64,000 bases of DNA from Candidatus Altimarinota bacterium (GCA_041242255.1 JBESAV010000001.1:448001-512000), one strand, 5' to 3'. Shown: positions 3,037 through 11,181, counted from the stretch's first letter. Notes: generated by a model not told the origin, from the letters alone. A program made the numbers and translations.

Positions 3037-4940
3037 ACCAAAACAAATTTTTCTATTTCATTGTTTCACTACTAATAGTCTTTTTTGTTTTAAATATATT
3101 CTCTTCAGCTCTAAACATATCTCAAATAACCAAACTAAATTTAAGCTCTCTAAGAGAAGCAGTTTCCTCTATATCCTCAGCCAAAGACAATACCCAAAGT
3201 TTAAATCTCGAAGAAGCCTCAAAAAATTTCACTCAAGCTAGCCAGTATTTCCAGGATTTAAAAGATTCATCGATTTACTTCGAAAACGATCTTTTATCTC
3301 CTCAAGAAATATCCCAAGCCGGACTAATATTAAGTAGGTTAGGAGAAAACTTAACCAATTCAGTAGCAAACCTAAAAGCCTTGCCAACTGAAATGTTTGA
3401 GATAAACAAGCAGGTCTTTTTAGGTGAAACACAATCCAAAAGATCCCAGTCTTTAACTACCCAAATTTCCCAAACCAAATCCACCATCGAGCTATCAATC
3501 TCTCAAGCAACTCAAGCTTCACAACTACTATCAGACCAATCCTACCAATTACTGCCTCCAAAACTTAAAAATGAATACAAGGACGCCCTACAAAAGCTAG
3601 ACCAAGTCCAAACAATCCTTCAAAGAGTAGACGCCCTTTTAGCAGGAACATTAGATTTACTAGGACATCGGACGCCACATCGTTACTTAGTACTCCTTCA
3701 AAATCAAAATGAGCTACGCCCACTCGGCGGTTTCTTAGGAAGTGTGATGTCATTCCAGGTAGATCAAGGAATCATAACTGATATTAATTTCCAAGATATA
3801 TACGACATCGATGGTCAGGCTCAAAAAACTTTAGATGTGCCACCAGAGTTCCAAGGTTTCTCTACAGAGATTTTCTCAAGAGATGCCAACTACAGCCCAA
3901 TTCCAGAGGTATCCATCCAAAAAATCCAAAACTTATTCAGCCACTCTAAGCAAACAAACTACAGATCATACATCATTCTAAATCATAATTTTCTAGCTAA
4001 GCTTCTTGAAAAAGCAGGCCCACTCTCTTTGCAAATTGACGGTAAAACCTATCAAATAACTTCAACTAATTTTTCACTTATTCTCAACACCATTGTTGAG
4101 ATCGAACAAAACAAAGATGTTGTAAACAAGATATTGGAAGATACCCAAACACACATTTTTCAAAACATATCTCAAGAAGATTTATTTCAAGTTATTTACA
4201 CATCAATTCAAGATAGAGATCTACAATTCTTTACTCTAAACCAAACCATCCAAAGCGAGATCGACAAAGCACCACTTTACAAACCAATATCCATCAACAC
4301 ACCACCCGAAACAGATTATCTTTTAGTCACAGAAACCAACATCGGGGGAAACAAGTCTGACCAATACATGCAGACAAACATTACCCACTCAACTAAGTTT
4401 TCTTCCAATCAAATCCTCAACACCATCAATCTATCCAAAACCCACACGTACTCAAATCAAACTGAAATCATCAATAATTCTATACTCCAGTCCAACAACA
4501 TACCTTCAATCCCTGATGAATTACGATTTATATTAGGAAGAGGGGACAATAAAACAATGACTAAACTGTATATCCCAGAGGGTTCAACCTTAGTAAGCTA
4601 TGAGGGTGATTTTACTAAAGATCCAGAAGTTTACCGAGACACAGATTTTCAAAAAACATATATATTATTCGAAACCCAAACAGCTCCAGGCCAAACCTCA
4701 AACGTTCAGATTACCTACAGACCAAAACTAAAAATACCTAATCAAAAAGTACAAACCTACCAGCTCCTTCTTCAAAAACCATCCGGATTTAGTTTCCAAT
4801 TCCAGAAAGAATTAGTTACTGACCAAACCATCAGGTTAAACACTCCAAACTTCCAAACCACTCAAAACCAACCCTTCAAAATCTCATCAACTACTCAAAG
4901 AATAAATCAAGATACCACATTCCAAAACTACTTCTATTGA
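3030..4940 (+). CDS. DUF4012 domain membrane-anchored protein
   Basis: N-terminal TM; motifs YLVLLQNQNELRPLGGFLGS, RDANYSP and NIGGNKSD typical of DUF4012. Confidence 0.85.
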   Translation: MVNQNKFFYFIVSLLIVFFVLNIFSSALNISQITKLNLSSLREAVSSISSAKDNTQSLNLEEASKNFTQASQYFQDLKDSSIYFENDLLSPQEISQAGLILSRLGENLTNSVANLKALPTEMFEINKQVFLGETQSKRSQSLTTQISQTKSTIELSISQATQASQLLSDQSYQLLPPKLKNEYKDALQKLDQVQTILQRVDALLAGTLDLLGHRTPHRYLVLLQNQNELRPLGGFLGSVMSFQVDQGIITDINFQDIYDIDGQAQKTLDVPPEFQGFSTEIFSRDANYSPIPEVSIQKIQNLFSHSKQTNYRSYIILNHNFLAKLLEKAGPLSLQIDGKTYQITSTNFSLILNTIVEIEQNKDVVNKILEDTQTHIFQNISQEDLFQVIYTSIQDRDLQFFTLNQTIQSEIDKAPLYKPISINTPPETDYLLVTETNIGGNKSDQYMQTNITHSTKFSSNQILNTINLSKTHTYSNQTEIINNSILQSNNIPSIPDELRFILGRGDNKTMTKLYIPEGSTLVSYEGDFTKDPEVYRDTDFQKTYILFETQTAPGQTSNVQITYRPKLKIPNQKVQTYQLLLQKPSGFSFQFQKELVTDQTIRLNTPNFQTTQNQPFKISSTTQRINQDTTFQNYFY

Positions 4941-5809
4941 AATAATACATTGAAGTAACTTGTTGTATTAGCATAATGTCCAGTATATTCATAAGAATTA
5001 GTATAACCAATAATCTCTGGATCTTTTTTCATCAAGCGAGCAAGCTCAACTCCAATCAAAAGTGAAGGAGGGGAGTCTACATTATCAATTTTCAAATCTT
5101 CAACATCCATCGACATAATAGCCTCACGAGTCTCCTGATCATAAACACCCGCCTGATTTACAGTCCTGTAATGATTAAAATCAACACTGATCACAAACTT
5201 TGCTTCATCATAATATTTAGTCAGAAATTTTGCCAACTCACGACTTTCCTTGTTCCCAGCTGAAGAGGACACAGATATAGGAACTATCCTAGCTTCAGGA
5301 TTTGTCATTTTTATATAATCAGCTTGCACTCCAATAGAGTGTTCTTTTTCAAAACAACCAGGCTCCATATTCACAAACCCACTTTCAACCAATTCTTCAA
5401 CAATACTCGGCTCACTCTCTAACAATCCAAAATTAGTTTTATAATCATGGTCTCCAGTGCTGAAAACATCCTCACATTTTTCCGGATGGTCAGGTCCAAT
5501 TACAATAAAAAGATCATCTTCATCACTCAAAAATTGCTCATAAAACTCACCAACAAAATCAGCTGCCACAGGCAAATGATGCGAGGTTATACCAATTCTA
5601 CTTGTTGATTCTTCTATGCTTTCTGGCCTACTAAAACTTCTCTCTATAGCCAGCTTATATTTAGAGTTATTACTATCTATCACTAGGTTTCCAACTTCAA
5701 TACTTTGAAGTGAACTTTCCTGAAAAGGGGAGTCCACTCCAGCGTAGCCCTGGCATCCAGCCAAGGCTACTAAACTAAGAATTAAGATACTAGGTTTATA
5801 GGTTTTCAT
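4934..5809 (-). CDS. MEMO1 / AmmeMemoRadiSam protein B-like lipoprotein
   Basis: Lipobox LAGC after a hydrophobic stretch; motifs SHH, IGPDH, EHSI and SVDFNHY; start overlaps the A2M stop (TAATG). Confidence 0.8.
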   Translation of the reverse strand: MKTYKPSILILSLVALAGCQGYAGVDSPFQESSLQSIEVGNLVIDSNNSKYKLAIERSFSRPESIEESTSRIGITSHHLPVAADFVGEFYEQFLSDEDDLFIVIGPDHPEKCEDVFSTGDHDYKTNFGLLESEPSIVEELVESGFVNMEPGCFEKEHSIGVQADYIKMTNPEARIVPISVSSSAGNKESRELAKFLTKYYDEAKFVISVDFNHYRTVNQAGVYDQETREAIMSMDVEDLKIDNVDSPPSLLIGVELARLMKKDPEIIGYTNSYEYTGHYANTTSYFNVLFQ

Positions 5810-8800
5810 TATCTGATAGTTATATTTCCATCTTCTCCTCTAGCCACATTATCAGCATCATACTCTTTGATTTGGGCACCTTGCACTTTAAATTCTCCAT
5901 CAGATACAACTCTAGCAAAGTAACTTATCTCACCATCATTACAGTTGTTATAACGCTCTAAAGAGTAACTAGATCGACTGAAAGTAATCACATTCCCAAC
6001 ACTCTTACCTCCATACCAATTATAACTACATGTCTCACTATTAAATTGATACCTAGTCACATTATTTATCACTGGTCTTAATCCAGAAGGTAAATAATCA
6101 ATAATCTGGTAATTCTTATATTCATCTTCATTGTAAATAGAGTCTTCAATATCTATCACAACTCGAACCAAGTCACCACTTTCAAACTGACTCGTTTCTA
6201 CTCCATCCACAAGATACCTCTTACTTATACTTAGATTTTGACTATTCCCAGCTAGGTCACCACTTTCTCTATAGCTAGCTACAAGCATTACCTCTCCATC
6301 AATACTTTCAACTTCCAGAGCCTCAGCTTGAGCTTTAGTTATCTTCTCATATCTCGAGAATCCATCACTCAAGTCAAACTCCATAACCTCATCTCCAATC
6401 CTTAAACTAACCAAAGACTCAACCAACTCAACATTTGATATAACTTTTTCCATTGCCATCACACCAGCAATACCATACACAGAACCATCACTTTCAAATA
6501 CTTCCAAAGCCTCTCCATCTACAGGCAAACCAATTCTAGCTCTCAAAAGATTATTTAACTGAGTAAACTGACCCTCTACTAAGTCACTCGAGATAGAGTT
6601 GTTATACATCGCTCTAGCACCTTCTTTATCTCCCATCTTCTCAAGCCCAAGCGCTACATATATTTCACCAAGTTTAGTATTCTCAGAGCTTCTAGCTACT
6701 TCTTTAAGTTCAGCCAAAACATTTTCTCCCAAACTTGCTAATCCATATAAGGCAATAGAGGTTCTCTCAATGTCTGCAGTCTTGTTAACCATCTGCTCTC
6801 TTAGATAACTAGAAGTCTTAGCTTTCAAAATATCATCCCCAAGAATATCAGAGACTAAAGCTGTTAATTCCAGGTCAGCATCACCATAAGTAAACAACGC
6901 CAATCCATTATTATCAGGCACATAGTAATCATTCAGATTCAAATCAATTTTTTCAGGTTCATTATTCCCAAACTGTTCACTCATCAAATCAACAATGTAG
7001 TTTCTTGTTACAATCTGATCCAACCTATTATTCACAACATAAAGTCCAGATCTCAACTCAGGTAAAAATTTACCTTTCCCAACTGTAGCTAATTCTAGAT
7101 CAACCATTCCCTCAGCAGGAACCTCTAGTCCAACTGCTCCAGTACTATCAATCAACACATCCTCAAATGCTAATCTTTGACCATATGATTCAATCACCTC
7201 AAAAGGCAATACCAATGTGTCAGCATTATCTCCCTGTCTTACAGTCAACTTAGCTTCGTGTATCCCAAGTTGAAGTTCTTCGATCTGGAAACCATAAGAA
7301 GTTTCACTACTAGTAACCTCTTCCAAAATCCCTAGCGATTCAATTTCCAAAACATAATCAATCTCATCTCCAATCACCAAGTCCTCCCCATAAGCTCTGA
7401 TCTCCATAACTGGTTTATCCTCTAGCAGGTAAGTGTCATTAATACTCGTTGCAGCAAACACAGGCAAGCTAACAGGCACTTTTATGTTATCTTGCCCAGC
7501 CAAAATTCTTTCATTTTCAAATGCCTTTGCTGAGATCCTCCATGAAGTTAAGTTATCAGGAAGATCAAAGAAAGCAGTTGCACTACCACCAGCATTTGTT
7601 TCGAAAGTATCAAACAAGCTTACATCTTTAAACTCAGATCTTTCAGCTCCACCTTTCTCAGCATTATGTACATAAATCCCATCCGCAAAGTATGTATGGG
7701 TTTTATCTACATTCAAGTTATACACTCTAGTTGCAGGCTTATTTACATATTCAATTTTTTCAATCCTAACAATCTCTCCATTTTCTCCAATCAATTCATC
7801 TCCAACCTCAGCCATCCCAGCCAATCTCCATTTTCCATTTAAGAAGATTTCATGTTCACCTGTTACTTCCAGCTCATCATTAATAATCATGTAACCATCT
7901 ACCAAATAGCTATGAACACCTTGCACAGTTACAATCTTCTTATTACCAGAATTTTCATTAGCGAAGCTCAAGACTTGGTCTCCAACTCGAACCTCCTCAA
8001 TCGGTTTACTTTCACCATTCGACATTAATACCATTGTCCCAGGTAAGAAACATCCTCCTTGCTCAGCACCAGCATCCATATTAGCCGCTTCAAGGCGTTC
8101 ATTTTTATTTGCCCCACTTTGCGGACTATCAATATTATCAATGTACAAAGTACTTAATATATCTTTCTCATACTCATAAGGTAAAACATGGAATAATGCC
8201 TCATCCACAGAAGCCAGGTTAACTTCAGCCTTTACCGGATCACCATTCACATCAGTTACTTCCATCTCAATCTCAACTCTTTCTCCAGGTCTATATCTAT
8301 CCTTGTCTGTTTGCATGTTTATGGAAAGCTCACTTTGCAATTCATCATACGAAGCAATCACTCTATTTGTATCCTCAAATCCAGTCTCAGTCAAAACAAC
8401 AGCCTGGTAAGCAAACCCAGGAATAAACTCTTCTTTAAATACTTTCGATACATTCTCCGAAGGAGTAACCTCAAAATCATCTATTGCAGTCTGGTACCCA
8501 TAGTATAAGTACTCCTCAGATTGTAGAGTCTTCTCTTCTGGAACATCCAATTCAAGCTCAAACTCTTCGCCTATTTTCAATTCAGGCTCCTGAGATCTAC
8601 TATTCAAGCTCAAAGTGATCCTTGAATCATCATAGAAACCAAAAGATCTATATCCTATATAGTTTTTAGTTTCAAAATTCACACCTCTGTCATCAGTCGA
8701 ACTTAAGATCACATAGTAAGAAGTATATAGATCTTTCTGTTGTTCAGTTGGCTCAAAGGTAAACTCAAATTCACCCTCACCATTTGTAACACCTTGCTTA

Positions 8801-11181
8801 GAGGTTAAAAAGTTTTCTCTGAACTCATACCTATATTGTTGCTGAGAAGTTTTCGAAACAGGATCATAGTAAAACCCATCTTCTATTTTTTCATAATAAG
8901 TTCCATAAATAGTTGCAGTCACACCTTTTCCAGTATCTGGATCACCGATGAACTCACTTCTGTAATAACCCCTCGAATCAGAGGTGGCATTTGCTAGGTT
9001 AACTTCATTAAGTTTTGCAGTGAGATTATATAAATCATCATCACTAGAAACATCATTTATTAATTGCATATAAACATCTTCCTCAAACACCAAAACTTCA
9101 GTCTGTGCACTTATCTCTCCTTGTTCAGGACTACCAGTTCTAAGGTAAATATTTCTAGAGTTTGGTCCATAACTAAATTCATCATCAGATCTATATGCAG
9201 TCGCACTGATAACTCCTTGTCCGTTCTCATCTAACTGCAGAGTGCTTTCTGAATTGTTGTAGTAATTTTGAGAAATATAATCACTGTACTGAACTTCTAG
9301 ATTTGGCACAGGTGTTCCATCAAAGAACTTAGCCTCAACCTCAATATCAACTGTTTCACCAGCAAACATGGAGTCTCGACTAGGAGTAGCAATCAACTGG
9401 TAAGCCGGCGTCTCAAAATCAACAATCTGCAAGCTCGAAGTAGAAATCACTTCATCATCTTTCTCTACTTGTAGTGTGTAGTAACCCGGTTCAATACCCT
9501 CAAAACTCAAAGATCCTTTAATCGTATCAAAGCTACTCACAACCGCCGTAGAAGAGGCAAGTTTATTATCATCCCAGTAACCATAGTAGTAGTAACTTCC
9601 ACCAGTCAAACTAACAGTTACTTTATCATTTTTTAGATCATCCTCTCGACCTTTAACCACTCCCCAAAAGTTTATCTCATCCGTAGGCCTATAAACATAA
9701 CGATCACTACTCAAGAAATTCCAATATCTATCAGCTTTAGGATAATAAAAACCATACCAGTTTGAATCTTCCATCATACTCAAATATGTTTCACCATTCC
9801 ATTCAACCATAAACGAACTAGGCCTATTATCTCCCATACCTTCAGATCTTTCTTTAAGGTAATCAGGCGCATTGTAATTCAATAATCCTTTCTCATTAGT
9901 TCGACCAAGGTCAGTAGTCTCACCACCTCCGATCAAACTAACATCAGCTCCATCCAAGAAAGATCCATTCTCAAAATCATACAACCATAATAACCCCGTT
10001 TCACTTGTATAAGTGTAGTAGTGGGCTAGGGGAGAAACCTGGAACCAAACAATCGACCTATCTCCATTATTACTATTTTCAATCTCAATTGCATATGTCC
10101 CAGTTTCCAGCTCATCTGCTAGATAAAGCACTCTTGAGTAATTTTGCTCAACAATCTCCGGCGAAACCTCATATAGTTTTGTAGCTTTCTCCAAACTCAA
10201 CTCATCATCAAAACTATTTTTATAAATTGAAGTCCAGTACCAGTTCCAATTCTTACTCTGACCATACTCTTCCATAAAGTCCTCAGTCGATTCGTATCTA
10301 TAAATACTTGTCGTATAATCTTCGTTAAATCCTTCTGTATCTAGCTCAGTATAACCAATACTAAAGAACTTATCTCCTCCTGGGAAAAAGCTTTCGTAAT
10401 CACTCCAGAAATTGATACCTCTTTCATTATAAGCCTCTGAAGATGTTTCAAATGTAAACACAAAGTCCTCTCCAAAGCTAGAATCTCTCTCATCAAACAA
10501 AGCTTGATCAACCGTCACAGTGTAAACTGTACCTTCTTGCATCCCAGCATGCACCAAAACTAGTTTCTCATCTTCTACTCGCACATCATAGTCCAAACTA
10601 GGCTCCACACTCACAAAACTAGCATCACCTTCAGTAACATCTTCGTTAAATTCAATCTCTATCGAAGAATCAATTGGCACATACGTCCCTCTGTTTCTTG
10701 GTAAACTAGATATCACCTGAAAGTCAGCTTCCACAGCAAAAGCCCAAGAATAATCTCTATTAGACTCTATGTTTGCCACCAAAAGCTCACCTTTAGGCAG
10801 CTCAACACTCGGAGTTAGAGTATATGAGTAGGTAGCATTACTATTTAGCTCTGCCCCCTGTGCTTTAGCTTGAGGAATCATACTCAGTATTCCACCTTGC
10901 TTCTCAACTTTAAACTCAATTTCAGGCTCAAAACTCACCAACTCTCTCACATCACTCTCAGATAATTCAACCTTACTATCCAGTGTGAAAGAAGATCCAG
11001 CTTTAGTCACAAAGTCTTCAAAAGTATCATTAGCTCTCAAGCTAAACAAAGTTTCTTCATCACTTTTATCAAAGTCATTAATCCCACTATCAAAAAGCAA
11101 ATCTCTGTACATAAAACCAACACCCACCAAAAGAATCACCAATAGGGAAGTCACTATTGGTAGAATAAATTTCTTATTCAT
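5809..11181 (-). CDS. alpha-2-macroglobulin family protein (Ig-like + MG2 + bait-region + A2M domains) with an internal Hint domain
   Basis: N-terminal TM; MG2 motif SDRYVYRPTDEINFWG; TDKDRYRPGE and LASVDEALF; FDLPDNLTSWRISA; C-terminal GDLVRV...IDYLPSGLRP. Confidence 0.9.
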   Translation of the reverse strand: MNKKFILPIVTSLLVILLVGVGFMYRDLLFDSGINDFDKSDEETLFSLRANDTFEDFVTKAGSSFTLDSKVELSESDVRELVSFEPEIEFKVEKQGGILSMIPQAKAQGAELNSNATYSYTLTPSVELPKGELLVANIESNRDYSWAFAVEADFQVISSLPRNRGTYVPIDSSIEIEFNEDVTEGDASFVSVEPSLDYDVRVEDEKLVLVHAGMQEGTVYTVTVDQALFDERDSSFGEDFVFTFETSSEAYNERGINFWSDYESFFPGGDKFFSIGYTELDTEGFNEDYTTSIYRYESTEDFMEEYGQSKNWNWYWTSIYKNSFDDELSLEKATKLYEVSPEIVEQNYSRVLYLADELETGTYAIEIENSNNGDRSIVWFQVSPLAHYYTYTSETGLLWLYDFENGSFLDGADVSLIGGGETTDLGRTNEKGLLNYNAPDYLKERSEGMGDNRPSSFMVEWNGETYLSMMEDSNWYGFYYPKADRYWNFLSSDRYVYRPTDEINFWGVVKGREDDLKNDKVTVSLTGGSYYYYGYWDDNKLASSTAVVSSFDTIKGSLSFEGIEPGYYTLQVEKDDEVISTSSLQIVDFETPAYQLIATPSRDSMFAGETVDIEVEAKFFDGTPVPNLEVQYSDYISQNYYNNSESTLQLDENGQGVISATAYRSDDEFSYGPNSRNIYLRTGSPEQGEISAQTEVLVFEEDVYMQLINDVSSDDDLYNLTAKLNEVNLANATSDSRGYYRSEFIGDPDTGKGVTATIYGTYYEKIEDGFYYDPVSKTSQQQYRYEFRENFLTSKQGVTNGEGEFEFTFEPTEQQKDLYTSYYVILSSTDDRGVNFETKNYIGYRSFGFYDDSRITLSLNSRSQEPELKIGEEFELELDVPEEKTLQSEEYLYYGYQTAIDDFEVTPSENVSKVFKEEFIPGFAYQAVVLTETGFEDTNRVIASYDELQSELSINMQTDKDRYRPGERVEIEMEVTDVNGDPVKAEVNLASVDEALFHVLPYEYEKDILSTLYIDNIDSPQSGANKNERLEAANMDAGAEQGGCFLPGTMVLMSNGESKPIEEVRVGDQVLSFANENSGNKKIVTVQGVHSYLVDGYMIINDELEVTGEHEIFLNGKWRLAGMAEVGDELIGENGEIVRIEKIEYVNKPATRVYNLNVDKTHTYFADGIYVHNAEKGGAERSEFKDVSLFDTFETNAGGSATAFFDLPDNLTSWRISAKAFENERILAGQDNIKVPVSLPVFAATSINDTYLLEDKPVMEIRAYGEDLVIGDEIDYVLEIESLGILEEVTSSETSYGFQIEELQLGIHEAKLTVRQGDNADTLVLPFEVIESYGQRLAFEDVLIDSTGAVGLEVPAEGMVDLELATVGKGKFLPELRSGLYVVNNRLDQIVTRNYIVDLMSEQFGNNEPEKIDLNLNDYYVPDNNGLALFTYGDADLELTALVSDILGDDILKAKTSSYLREQMVNKTADIERTSIALYGLASLGENVLAELKEVARSSENTKLGEIYVALGLEKMGDKEGARAMYNNSISSDLVEGQFTQLNNLLRARIGLPVDGEALEVFESDGSVYGIAGVMAMEKVISNVELVESLVSLRIGDEVMEFDLSDGFSRYEKITKAQAEALEVESIDGEVMLVASYRESGDLAGNSQNLSISKRYLVDGVETSQFESGDLVRVVIDIEDSIYNEDEYKNYQIIDYLPSGLRPVINNVTRYQFNSETCSYNWYGGKSVGNVITFSRSSYSLERYNNCNDGEISYFARVVSDGEFKVQGAQIKEYDADNVARGEDGNITIR
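7663..8052 (-). other. Hint (bacterial intein-like) domain, 130 aa, residues 1044-1173 of the A2M
   Basis: Block A CFLPGTMV, block B VTGEH, block F VYNLNVDKTHTYFADG, block G VHN; the +1 residue is Ala; no endonuclease domain. Confidence 0.93.

Follow-up and report, generated by a model that had tools for sequence, protein, structure and literature searches.

Alpha-2-macroglobulin (A2M), the complement proteins C3, C4 and C5, the insect TEPs and ECAM of bacteria are all regarded as proteins that an external protease switches by cutting a single loop. In C3, C4 and C5 a small domain, ANA, lies between the halves of the MG domain at the activation site, and its removal by one cut converts the protein. 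Domains of the bacterial intein-like (BIL) and PT-HINT kinds are known from variable regions of surface proteins or from positions just before the tips of polymorphic toxins. The gene considered here lies in a stretch of 64,000 nucleotides (hereafter the window) from a Candidatus Altimarinota bacterium (GCA_041242255.1 JBESAV010000001.1:448001-512000). It encodes an A2M-family protein with a Hint domain in the segment which matches the A2M bait region by position. A2Ms and type-A BILs are both known, while their combination does not seem to have been described. No published architecture joining A2M with a Hint, intein or BIL domain was found in the full-text literature, whose coverage left subscription journals mostly outside, and in the patescibacterial literature the SaA2M structure was merely cited in the reference list of one paper.

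The nearest described bacterial A2Ms are ECAM (YfhM) and SaA2M (5a42, 4ziq, 4rtd, 4u48). The protein of the window has in common with them a membrane anchor, multiple MG domains, a bait inserted in an MG domain, a TED-like helical domain and a C-terminal MG domain. It differs in carrying RLDQ instead of the thioester motif CxEQ, an N-terminal helix instead of a lipobox, a Memo-like lipoprotein gene instead of PBP1c in the neighbourhood, and a Hint domain at the end of the bait. According to the report on the ECAM structure, the disordered bait is Arg923-Leu942, while Arg956, Gly958 and Asn963 belong to the cleaved bait (Arg956-Asn963); a single MG domain contains the inserted bait, and crystals of ECAM cut by elastase contained domains from either side of it (PMC4498604).

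A thioester-less A2M, MagD of P. aeruginosa ('type II'), is present in cells as a 165-kDa form and a cleaved form of about 100 kDa (PMC3735191). This cleaved form gives a precedent for the processing of a thioester-less bacterial A2M. MagD is encoded in the mag operon, which has six genes, and its cutting factor is not known, whereas mag-like neighbours are missing here and a built-in Hint could do the cutting. The likeness to MagD, which is drawn by description and not by sequence comparison, lies in an A2M fold without the thioester Cys.

For the inserted domain, the closest described systems are the type-A BIL and PT-HINT domains (2lwy). They share with it a mini-Hint of about 130 aa, Cys1, the block-B T..H, the final HN, the lack of both a +1 nucleophile and an endonuclease, and a secreted or surface host; the A2M Hint differs from the known ones in being fixed in one functional loop and inherited with its host. 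As reviewed for type-A BILs, these domains end in His-Asn without a +1 nucleophile, form an N-terminal thioester and cyclise the Asn, with mostly cleavage as the product, and ligation is possible when the freed amino group attacks the thioester (PMC4031507). Class 1 inteins have the same fold and catalytic blocks, and resemble the insert also in their insertion into a conserved host motif (GAExGG/GG in the case of the insert) and their patchy occurrence among homologues, but the insert has no Cys, Ser or Thr at +1, no homing endonuclease and an exported host. The slot of the ANA domain is comparable too: immediately behind the insert, from profile 1167-1172 on, the family profile can be aligned with C3 and C5. 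The positional equivalence is extrapolated and not residue-aligned. An external convertase takes ANA out, and ANA has a signalling role of its own, whereas the Hint here would be the putative cutting enzyme itself.

The host protein and the inserted Hint domain

The reading frame, the Hint boundaries and the position of the Cys in GG/CFLPGT (residue 1044) given in a preliminary description of the window were reproduced by translation and codon mapping, and the motifs quoted there (LASVDEALF, TGEH, VYNL, VHN/A, RSEFKDVSLF and LPDNLTSW) are all present in the translation. The host, which that description had called an A2M, is on sequence and model evidence an A2M-superfamily protein, predicted to be N-terminally anchored and extracytoplasmic. 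Pfam, the family profile and Foldseek agree on this assignment. A2M_BRD, A2M and bMG10 matched above their Pfam cut-offs; among the domains expected earlier, A2M_BRD, A2M and PT-HINT were found at this level, but MG2 stayed below it (30.2 vs 32.8 bits). Compared with the PDB, the family profile matched YfhM/ECAM (E 3.9e-49) and SaA2M (3.2e-40), then insect TEP1, human A2M, CD109, C5 and C3. This profile was needed for the A2M matches, since a single-sequence search of the PDB matched Hint chains only and no A2M.

An AlphaFold2 (AF2) model was made for residues 700-1790 with 46 aligned sequences (mean pLDDT 83.3, pTM 0.56). This model of the C-terminal 1091 aa resembled ECAM 5a42 (Foldseek E 3.8e-36), with a TMq of 0.43 for native ECAM 5a42 and 0.44 for SaA2M 4u48, against 0.29 for the protease-cleaved 4ziq and 4rtd.

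The thioester motif CxEQ is absent from the 1790-aa protein, in which Cys occurs only at 1044, 1718 and 1747. In the alignment RLDQ stands where relatives carry CVEQ, CTEQ or CIEQ, and R-x-D-Q is the commonest state of this site in the class to which the protein belongs. It replaces CxEQ across the thioester-less class, with or without Hint, and the conserved Arg-x-Asp-Gln may form a salt bridge substituting for the thioester. The lack of CxEQ bars the label 'thioester protein' and not membership of the superfamily, because MagD-type A2Ms show the same state.

The insert is, judged by its sequence, a complete mini-Hint of the type-A BIL/PT-HINT kind. PT-HINT (PF07591) matched residues 1058-1174 (E 1.6e-13, 51.5 bits, cut-off 27.7), intein_Cterm (TIGR01443, NCBIfam) matched residues 1153-1173 (E 6e-5), and the Hint part of the family profile matched the bacterial intein-like domain 2lwy (E 1.3e-18, chain 5-138), its nearest solved relative. 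In the AF2 model, the Hint blocks mostly reached pLDDT 82-95. The residues expected for catalysis are C1044, TGEH at 1107-1110 (T1107 and H1110) and H1172-N1173, followed by A1174 at +1. The earlier assignment to the BIL-A/PT-HINT type, made from Cys1, TxxH, the terminal HN and the lack of a +1 nucleophile, was thus confirmed by PF07591 and 2lwy.

A word-indexed search with residues 860-1300 gave 124 matches, the best 120 of which supplied the homologue set (P numbers). Its 48 Hint-bearing clusters comprise the window protein and homologues in the range P0002-P0049, among the matches listed. Cys1 and the terminal HN were present in 48/48 of these clusters, with a Hint length of 127-130 aa for the whole domain and no homing endonuclease. 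Residue +1 was A in 16, E in 15, D in 10, Q in 6 and G in 1, and GG occupied -1/-2 in 46/48. C1044, T1107, H1110, H1172 and N1173, together with an R at alignment position 179, were invariant in a 45-sequence alignment, and the Hint Cys was the sole Cys of two proteins (P0023 and P0024). Lys was found at +2/+3 (K1176 here) in all 48 clusters and in 34/34 readable loci among the species-representative loci described below, while none of 39 Hint-less homologues had it in the matching segment.

Two other kinds of Hint were rejected. A canonical class 1 intein requires Cys, Ser or Thr at +1, where Ala is found here and none of the three in the 48 clusters. In a Hedgehog/Hog-type domain an adduct-recognition region comes after the Hint and there is no cyclisation of a C-terminal Asn, which does not fit a Hint with HN as its last residues and an A2M MG domain within the next 8; the Hedgehog-type PF01079 match spanned only 1034-1076 and was under the cut-off.

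The profile and the model both place the insert in the segment which positionally matches the A2M bait region, as had been proposed. The family profile aligned with ECAM chain positions 815-881 before the insert (up to ...VDEALF...LY) and resumed at 937, so that the Hint falls within a gap of 56 ECAM residues; 881-937 is a chain index and not a residue number, and the overlap with the bait holds for any offset from 0 to 39. In the AF2 model the confident Hint is bracketed by linkers of low confidence (pLDDT <50) at residues 1023-1042 (model 324-343) and 1174-1178. Among the 48 homologues, residues 1003-1037 were the least conserved stretch, with a mean pairwise identity of 0.218 against 0.30 for the whole N-terminal half and a length of 27-36 aa, while the flanks were strongly conserved (0.754 for GAExGG before the Hint and 0.679 for the five residues after it). 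The Hint therefore sits at the C-terminal end of a bait-like loop, about 8 residues ahead of the invariant Arg which opens the next MG domain. The hypervariable linker of 20-35 aa ahead of it may remain a protease-cleavable bait.

Distribution and evolution of the architecture

The A2M-Hint architecture is not unique to the window and forms a large conserved family across Patescibacteria. The Hint was found at one shared alignment column in the 48 homologue clusters, far beyond chance. Homologues P0002-P0049 were 33-75% identical to the query region, had 1694-1928 aa (except P0042) and carried PT-HINT and A2M domains; the few named members were Patescibacteria and Daviesbacteria. When 1.84 billion representatives were searched exhaustively with HMMER, 376 proteins matched at E <= 1e-30. 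Among the 150 best representatives, 131 combined the Hint with the following MG domain, mostly in proteins of about 1700-1900 aa, some being shorter and perhaps partial, and the other 19 had the Hint only, many as tandem repeats. The Hint was also found at the same site in 35/80 species-representative loci, which overlap partly with the homologue set and include Kerfeld-, Peri-, Parcu-, Moranii-, Falkow-, Collier- and Uhrbacteria and several metagenome-assembled genomes otherwise labelled. Residue +1 was Ser in one (L041) of 34 readable loci and A, E, D, Q, G or N in the others.

In the phylum of the window, 55 of 401 sampled genomes had some match; by reading of the match table, 20 of the 401 span the Hint and the MG domain, and about 20 carry only the Hint-less MG part. 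The genome of the window, a single contig of 1.0 Mb, has one Hint and one A2M, both belonging to the gene described here. Databases label the A2M-Hint proteins 'polymorphic toxin-type HINT domain-containing' or 'hypothetical'. The search for the same architecture proposed in the preliminary description was thus answered by the 35 loci and the 131 representatives; its claim of a new architecture stands in so far as no published description was found, but not as a single case, since the family is large and conserved and extends to thioester-bearing A2Ms. The Hint and an intact CxEQ occur together in clusters P0046-49 and in 10/35 Hint loci, which group with the thioester-type A2Ms. Hint-less relatives (P0050-P0088) belong by name to Dehalococcoidia, Acidobacteria, Uhrbacteria and others, and CxEQ is also absent in 38/39 of them.

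The Hint is the best-conserved part of the protein, with 35-81% identity to the copy of the window, compared with 15-69% for the N- and C-terminal parts, and its divergence tracks that of the host (r = 0.93). The GC content of the Hint (0.364) equals that of the whole gene (0.376). Conservation tracking the host and equal GC fit a long-resident domain under purifying selection, and a recent foreign insertion was rejected on the same grounds. The architecture, its position, its conservation and the family assignment are direct observations. In a FastTree of 41 A2M Hints and 11 other Hints, the A2M Hints formed one clade with a tandem-Hint protein as neighbour and the Rhs-type PT-HINTs outside; the domain is short, the deep nodes are weak, and P0027, P0031, P0034-37 and P0040 were left out, since the alignment slice had removed their last residues. 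The 'HINT' label of P0120 in a FastTree drawing was rejected as an alignment artefact, the insert having no Cys start and no HN end and the protein no PF07591. The Rhs-type matches of the word-indexed search (P0113, P0115-P0117 and P0119) are PT-HINTs of the known kind.

Tandem-Hint proteins (P0042 and 18 others) are the closest non-A2M relatives of the A2M Hint. P0042 consists of head-to-tail Hints, with 11 matched stretches in 1285 aa and linkers of only K-G-G or similar.

Hint-less relatives have GAERGG-(D/E)GGA-R...F.D at the insert site, and this same site is used in two distant A2M classes. The codons of AEQGG and AEKGG on the two sides of the Hint form an imperfect direct repeat of 15 nt (13/15 identical), which could aid precise loss of the Hint. 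For the host tree, 88 full-length proteins were aligned with MAFFT FFT-NS-2, which leaves the deep columns approximate; P0042, P0051 and P0054, being partial or not an A2M, were excluded. On this tree (IQ-TREE, 47 rows, Hint columns removed, LG+G4), Hint presence required 6 changes, of which branches with good support impose 3 or more; P0027 (with Hint) and P0081 (Hint-less) were sisters at 100% support. The two forms may be functionally interchangeable.

Proposed processing and its rivals

The reading preferred here, which is given about an even chance, is that the insert is a domesticated type-A BIL which excises itself and leaves a two-chain, membrane-anchored, thioester-less A2M. After export and folding, the Hint would carry out an N-S acyl shift at the Gly1043-Cys1044 bond, giving a thioester, and cyclisation of Asn1173 would break the Asn1173-Ala1174 bond. 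The main outcome would be self-excision, in which the Hint (14.5 kDa) is set free from an N-fragment (118.8 kDa) that keeps the anchor and a C-fragment (68.1 kDa), and the two chains would be held together by the MG domain which brackets the bait. The break would lie at the site at which cleavage by a protease ordinarily releases the tether of the bait and brings about the A2M conformational change, and the Hint would serve as a built-in, protease-independent step of maturation or activation. All sequence requirements of type-A BIL chemistry are present and conserved in this protein. The cleavage itself, its timing, which could be constitutive or triggered, its conformational effect and so any self-triggering of the A2M are predictions from sequence. 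Release of a C-terminal half of about 615 aa, as suggested earlier, is unlikely by analogy, because the ECAM bait sits inside one MG domain and the cleaved form retains both sides.

Several observations weigh against permanent self-excision. Simple cleavage leaves the invariant Lys at +2/+3 unexplained, and one locus (L041) has Ser at +1. The rejoined flanks would come close to the Hint-less motif GAERGG-xGGA-R. In the ten loci which combine the Hint with CxEQ, constitutive self-cleavage should use up the thioester with no target present. Hint-bearing and Hint-less forms are interleaved on the host tree, although this tree came from a short LG+G4 search and not from a better mixture model, so that long-branch artefacts are likelier. 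If the two forms are interchangeable, re-ligation fits better than permanent cleavage.

A first rival is BIL-type splicing, which is judged rather unlikely: the Hint would be taken out, and the halves rejoined when the +1 amino group attacks the Gly1043 thioester. The mature A2M would then be an ordinary single chain whose bait is whole. The Hint would be a passenger of the intein kind, or else a conditional switch, and would leave no permanent mark on how the A2M works. The closest solved relative, 2lwy, is itself a BIL domain, and a paper on its trans-splicing reportedly describes, by its title, the reaction 'without nucleophilic side chains', which was counted for splicing. Both junction residues are conserved, although cleavage at one end would not need both, and the flanks are Gly-rich and flexible, with a rejoined product near the Hint-less motif and the 13/15-nt direct repeat around the insert. 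The patchy occurrence on the host tree with one site in two distant A2M classes, the Hint alongside an intact thioester in 10 loci and the Ser of L041 also favour splicing. It is opposed by the missing C/S/T at +1 in 48/48 clusters and 33/34 readable loci, by the lack of a homing endonuclease in a domain of 127-130 aa, and by the host tracking (r = 0.93) and single A2M-Hint clade, which speak against frequent lateral movement. Type-A BILs can ligate without a +1 nucleophile, but cleavage products dominate in those studied (PMC4031507).

A second rival is a thioester hand-off, in which the nucleophile that resolves Gly1043~Cys1044 would be neither water nor the +1 amine. The acceptor could be the Lys at +2/+3, and the bait would then be stapled by a Gly-Lys isopeptide; it could also be an amine or hydroxyl on a protease that has been captured, on a surface protein of a host cell or on a component of the wall. 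The Hint would supply the covalent-capture chemistry lost by the TED. The bait would in that case be a latent acyl donor, whose Gly-Gly~Cys thioester is taken by an amine such as this Lys (a ubiquitin-like isopeptide), a protease or a host-cell surface protein. Such a hand-off is regarded as improbable, for the reading as a whole and for this form of it alike. Hedgehog-type Hints pass the same thioester to an outside nucleophile, which was counted in its favour. It would also suit the class without CxEQ, where R-x-D-Q stands in its place, the sterically open acyl donor formed by GG at -1/-2 in 46/48, and Lys at +2/+3 in every Hint-bearing cluster and readable locus and in no Hint-less one (0/39). 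However, the Hint does not track loss of the thioester: 38/39 Hint-less relatives also lack CxEQ and ten loci have both, which weakens the Hint as a replacement for a lost thioester. A pure hand-off would not need the conserved terminal Asn, and the protein has no adaptor domain. Lys or Arg also follows HN at 8 repeat junctions of P0042, so the Lys is maybe a trait of the Hint subfamily and not of the A2M.

A chemically silent Hint, which would only plug the bait loop or space it out as a folded domain and so change the access of proteases, is very improbable. The hypervariable, low-confidence linker could remain a working bait, and Hint-less relatives work without the domain. Against this, Cys1, the block-B Thr and His and the terminal His-Asn are invariant in proteins which are otherwise 15-69% identical, and two members have no Cys besides that of the Hint.

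Gene features, neighbouring genes and significance

The features of the gene and its downstream neighbour are collected in the table. The anchor helix, read from the translation, covers about residues 5-25, and no cytoplasmic domain lies ahead of it.

Table. Features of the A2M-Hint gene and of the adjoining Memo-like gene, in window positions
Feature	Position	Strand	Basis and remarks
Whole A2M-Hint gene	5809..11181	(-)	Single open reading frame, 1790 codons/aa, 201.5 kDa
N-terminal hydrophobic signal-anchor, residues 1-25, MNKKFILPIVTSLLVILLVGVGFMY	11107..11181	(-)	Read from translation, without signal-peptide predictor
Big_5 Ig-like domain, residues 154-246	10444..10722	(-)	Pfam E 8.8e-9
A2M_BRD (bait-region-domain), residues 864-997	8191..8592	(-)	Pfam E 1.9e-7; profile-aligned to ECAM chain 815-881
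Hypervariable bait-like pre-Hint linker, residues 1003-1037	8071..8175	(-)	Conservation profile and AF2 low-confidence segment
GAEQGG conserved N-flank, residues 1038-1043	8053..8070	(-)	Pairwise identity 0.754; motif also in Hint-less homologues
Hint domain, residues 1044-1173, 130 aa, 14.5 kDa	7663..8052	(-)	Pfam, NCBIfam, codon mapping
AEKGG C-flank, residues 1174-1178	7648..7662	(-)	pLDDT <50; K1176 at +2/+3 position
A2M Pfam domain (MG domain after bait), residues 1189-1243	7453..7617	(-)	E 5.4e-5; R1181-x-x-F-x-D precedes
Helical TED-like domain without thioester, about residues 1360-1582	6436..7104	(-)	AF2 model helices 688-883; ECAM/SaA2M fold match
RLDQ, residues 1386-1389	7015..7026	(-)	Aligned with CxEQ in relatives which have the thioester
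bMG10 C-terminal MG domain, residues 1662-1773	5863..6198	(-)	Pfam E 1.7e-6
Memo-like lipoprotein gene, 291 aa, lipobox LAGC	4934..5809	(-)	PF01875 E 1.6e-19; shares base 5809 with the A2M reading frame

The neighbours in the window were the Memo-like gene, a MiaB-like radical SAM gene (upstream), DUF4012 and LeuRS; PBP1c, mag genes and a protease gene were not found among them. In species loci from several phyla, a Memo-like gene directly follows the A2M gene on its strand (24/34 with the Hint, 29/43 without), and an extracytoplasmic Memo-A2M pair seems to be undescribed. No protease gene was found to be kept beside Hint-less loci but not Hint-bearing ones; only the Memo-like gene and an ECF sigma gene were widely shared, both occurring with either form. 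In four Hint-less loci an open reading frame of about 145 aa adjoins the Memo-like gene (L023:10957-11391 (-); L024, L025 and L032); that of L023 had a weak 'Host_attach' (PF10116) match (E 4.2e-5), under the cut-off.

The ECF sigma gene (Sigma70_r2 and r4) was located directly upstream on the same strand in 10/18 fetched loci (L020-L025, L027, L028, L031 and L032), and upstream in at least 17 of 77 species loci with short flanks. In the ten loci the A2M has an extension of 40-120 aa ahead of its membrane helix, while L016, L017 and L029 have an extension of about 35-60 aa yet no sigma gene. This suggests, from sequence features, A2M-type anti-sigma factors forming a protease-sensing signal path in part of the class; no anti-sigma Pfam domain was detected in 8 A2M N-terminal extensions, and no relevant paper was found. 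For the A2M of the window an anti-sigma role was rejected: the helix starts at about residue 5, the upstream gene is the MiaB-like one, and no ECF sigma gene is adjacent. An ECF sigma homologue of the same genome (L113, 191 aa) lies about 440 kb from the A2M gene, some 438 kb downstream of the end of the window, and is followed by a gene for a protein of 467+ aa with an N-terminal part of about 80 aa and one membrane helix; the two seem to form an ordinary sigma/anti-sigma pair with no relation to the A2M.

GC skew was strongly negative over all 64 kb (cumulative -9.2), and the minus strand carries most long reading frames of the first 22 kb, which fits one replichore of a small genome.

The A2M-Hint gene occupies 5.4 kb of a 1.0-Mb genome. 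If self-excision is true, this would be the first protease-independent firing or maturation of the A2M fold, in a widespread natural family. A BIL would, moreover, have for the first time a fixed role, passed on vertically, in a defined functional site, not beside a toxin tip or in a variable surface region, and self-processing A2M scaffolds could find use in protein engineering. If the hand-off were true instead, thioester-less A2Ms would perform covalent capture or attachment with intein chemistry in place of the TED thioester, as a self-arming covalent adhesin or trap in an episymbiotic bacterium with a tiny genome. Through the family, a 200-kDa surface protein which is abundant in Patescibacteria and has lacked an explanation becomes approachable, together with its partners, the Memo-like lipoprotein and, in many members, the ECF sigma factor.

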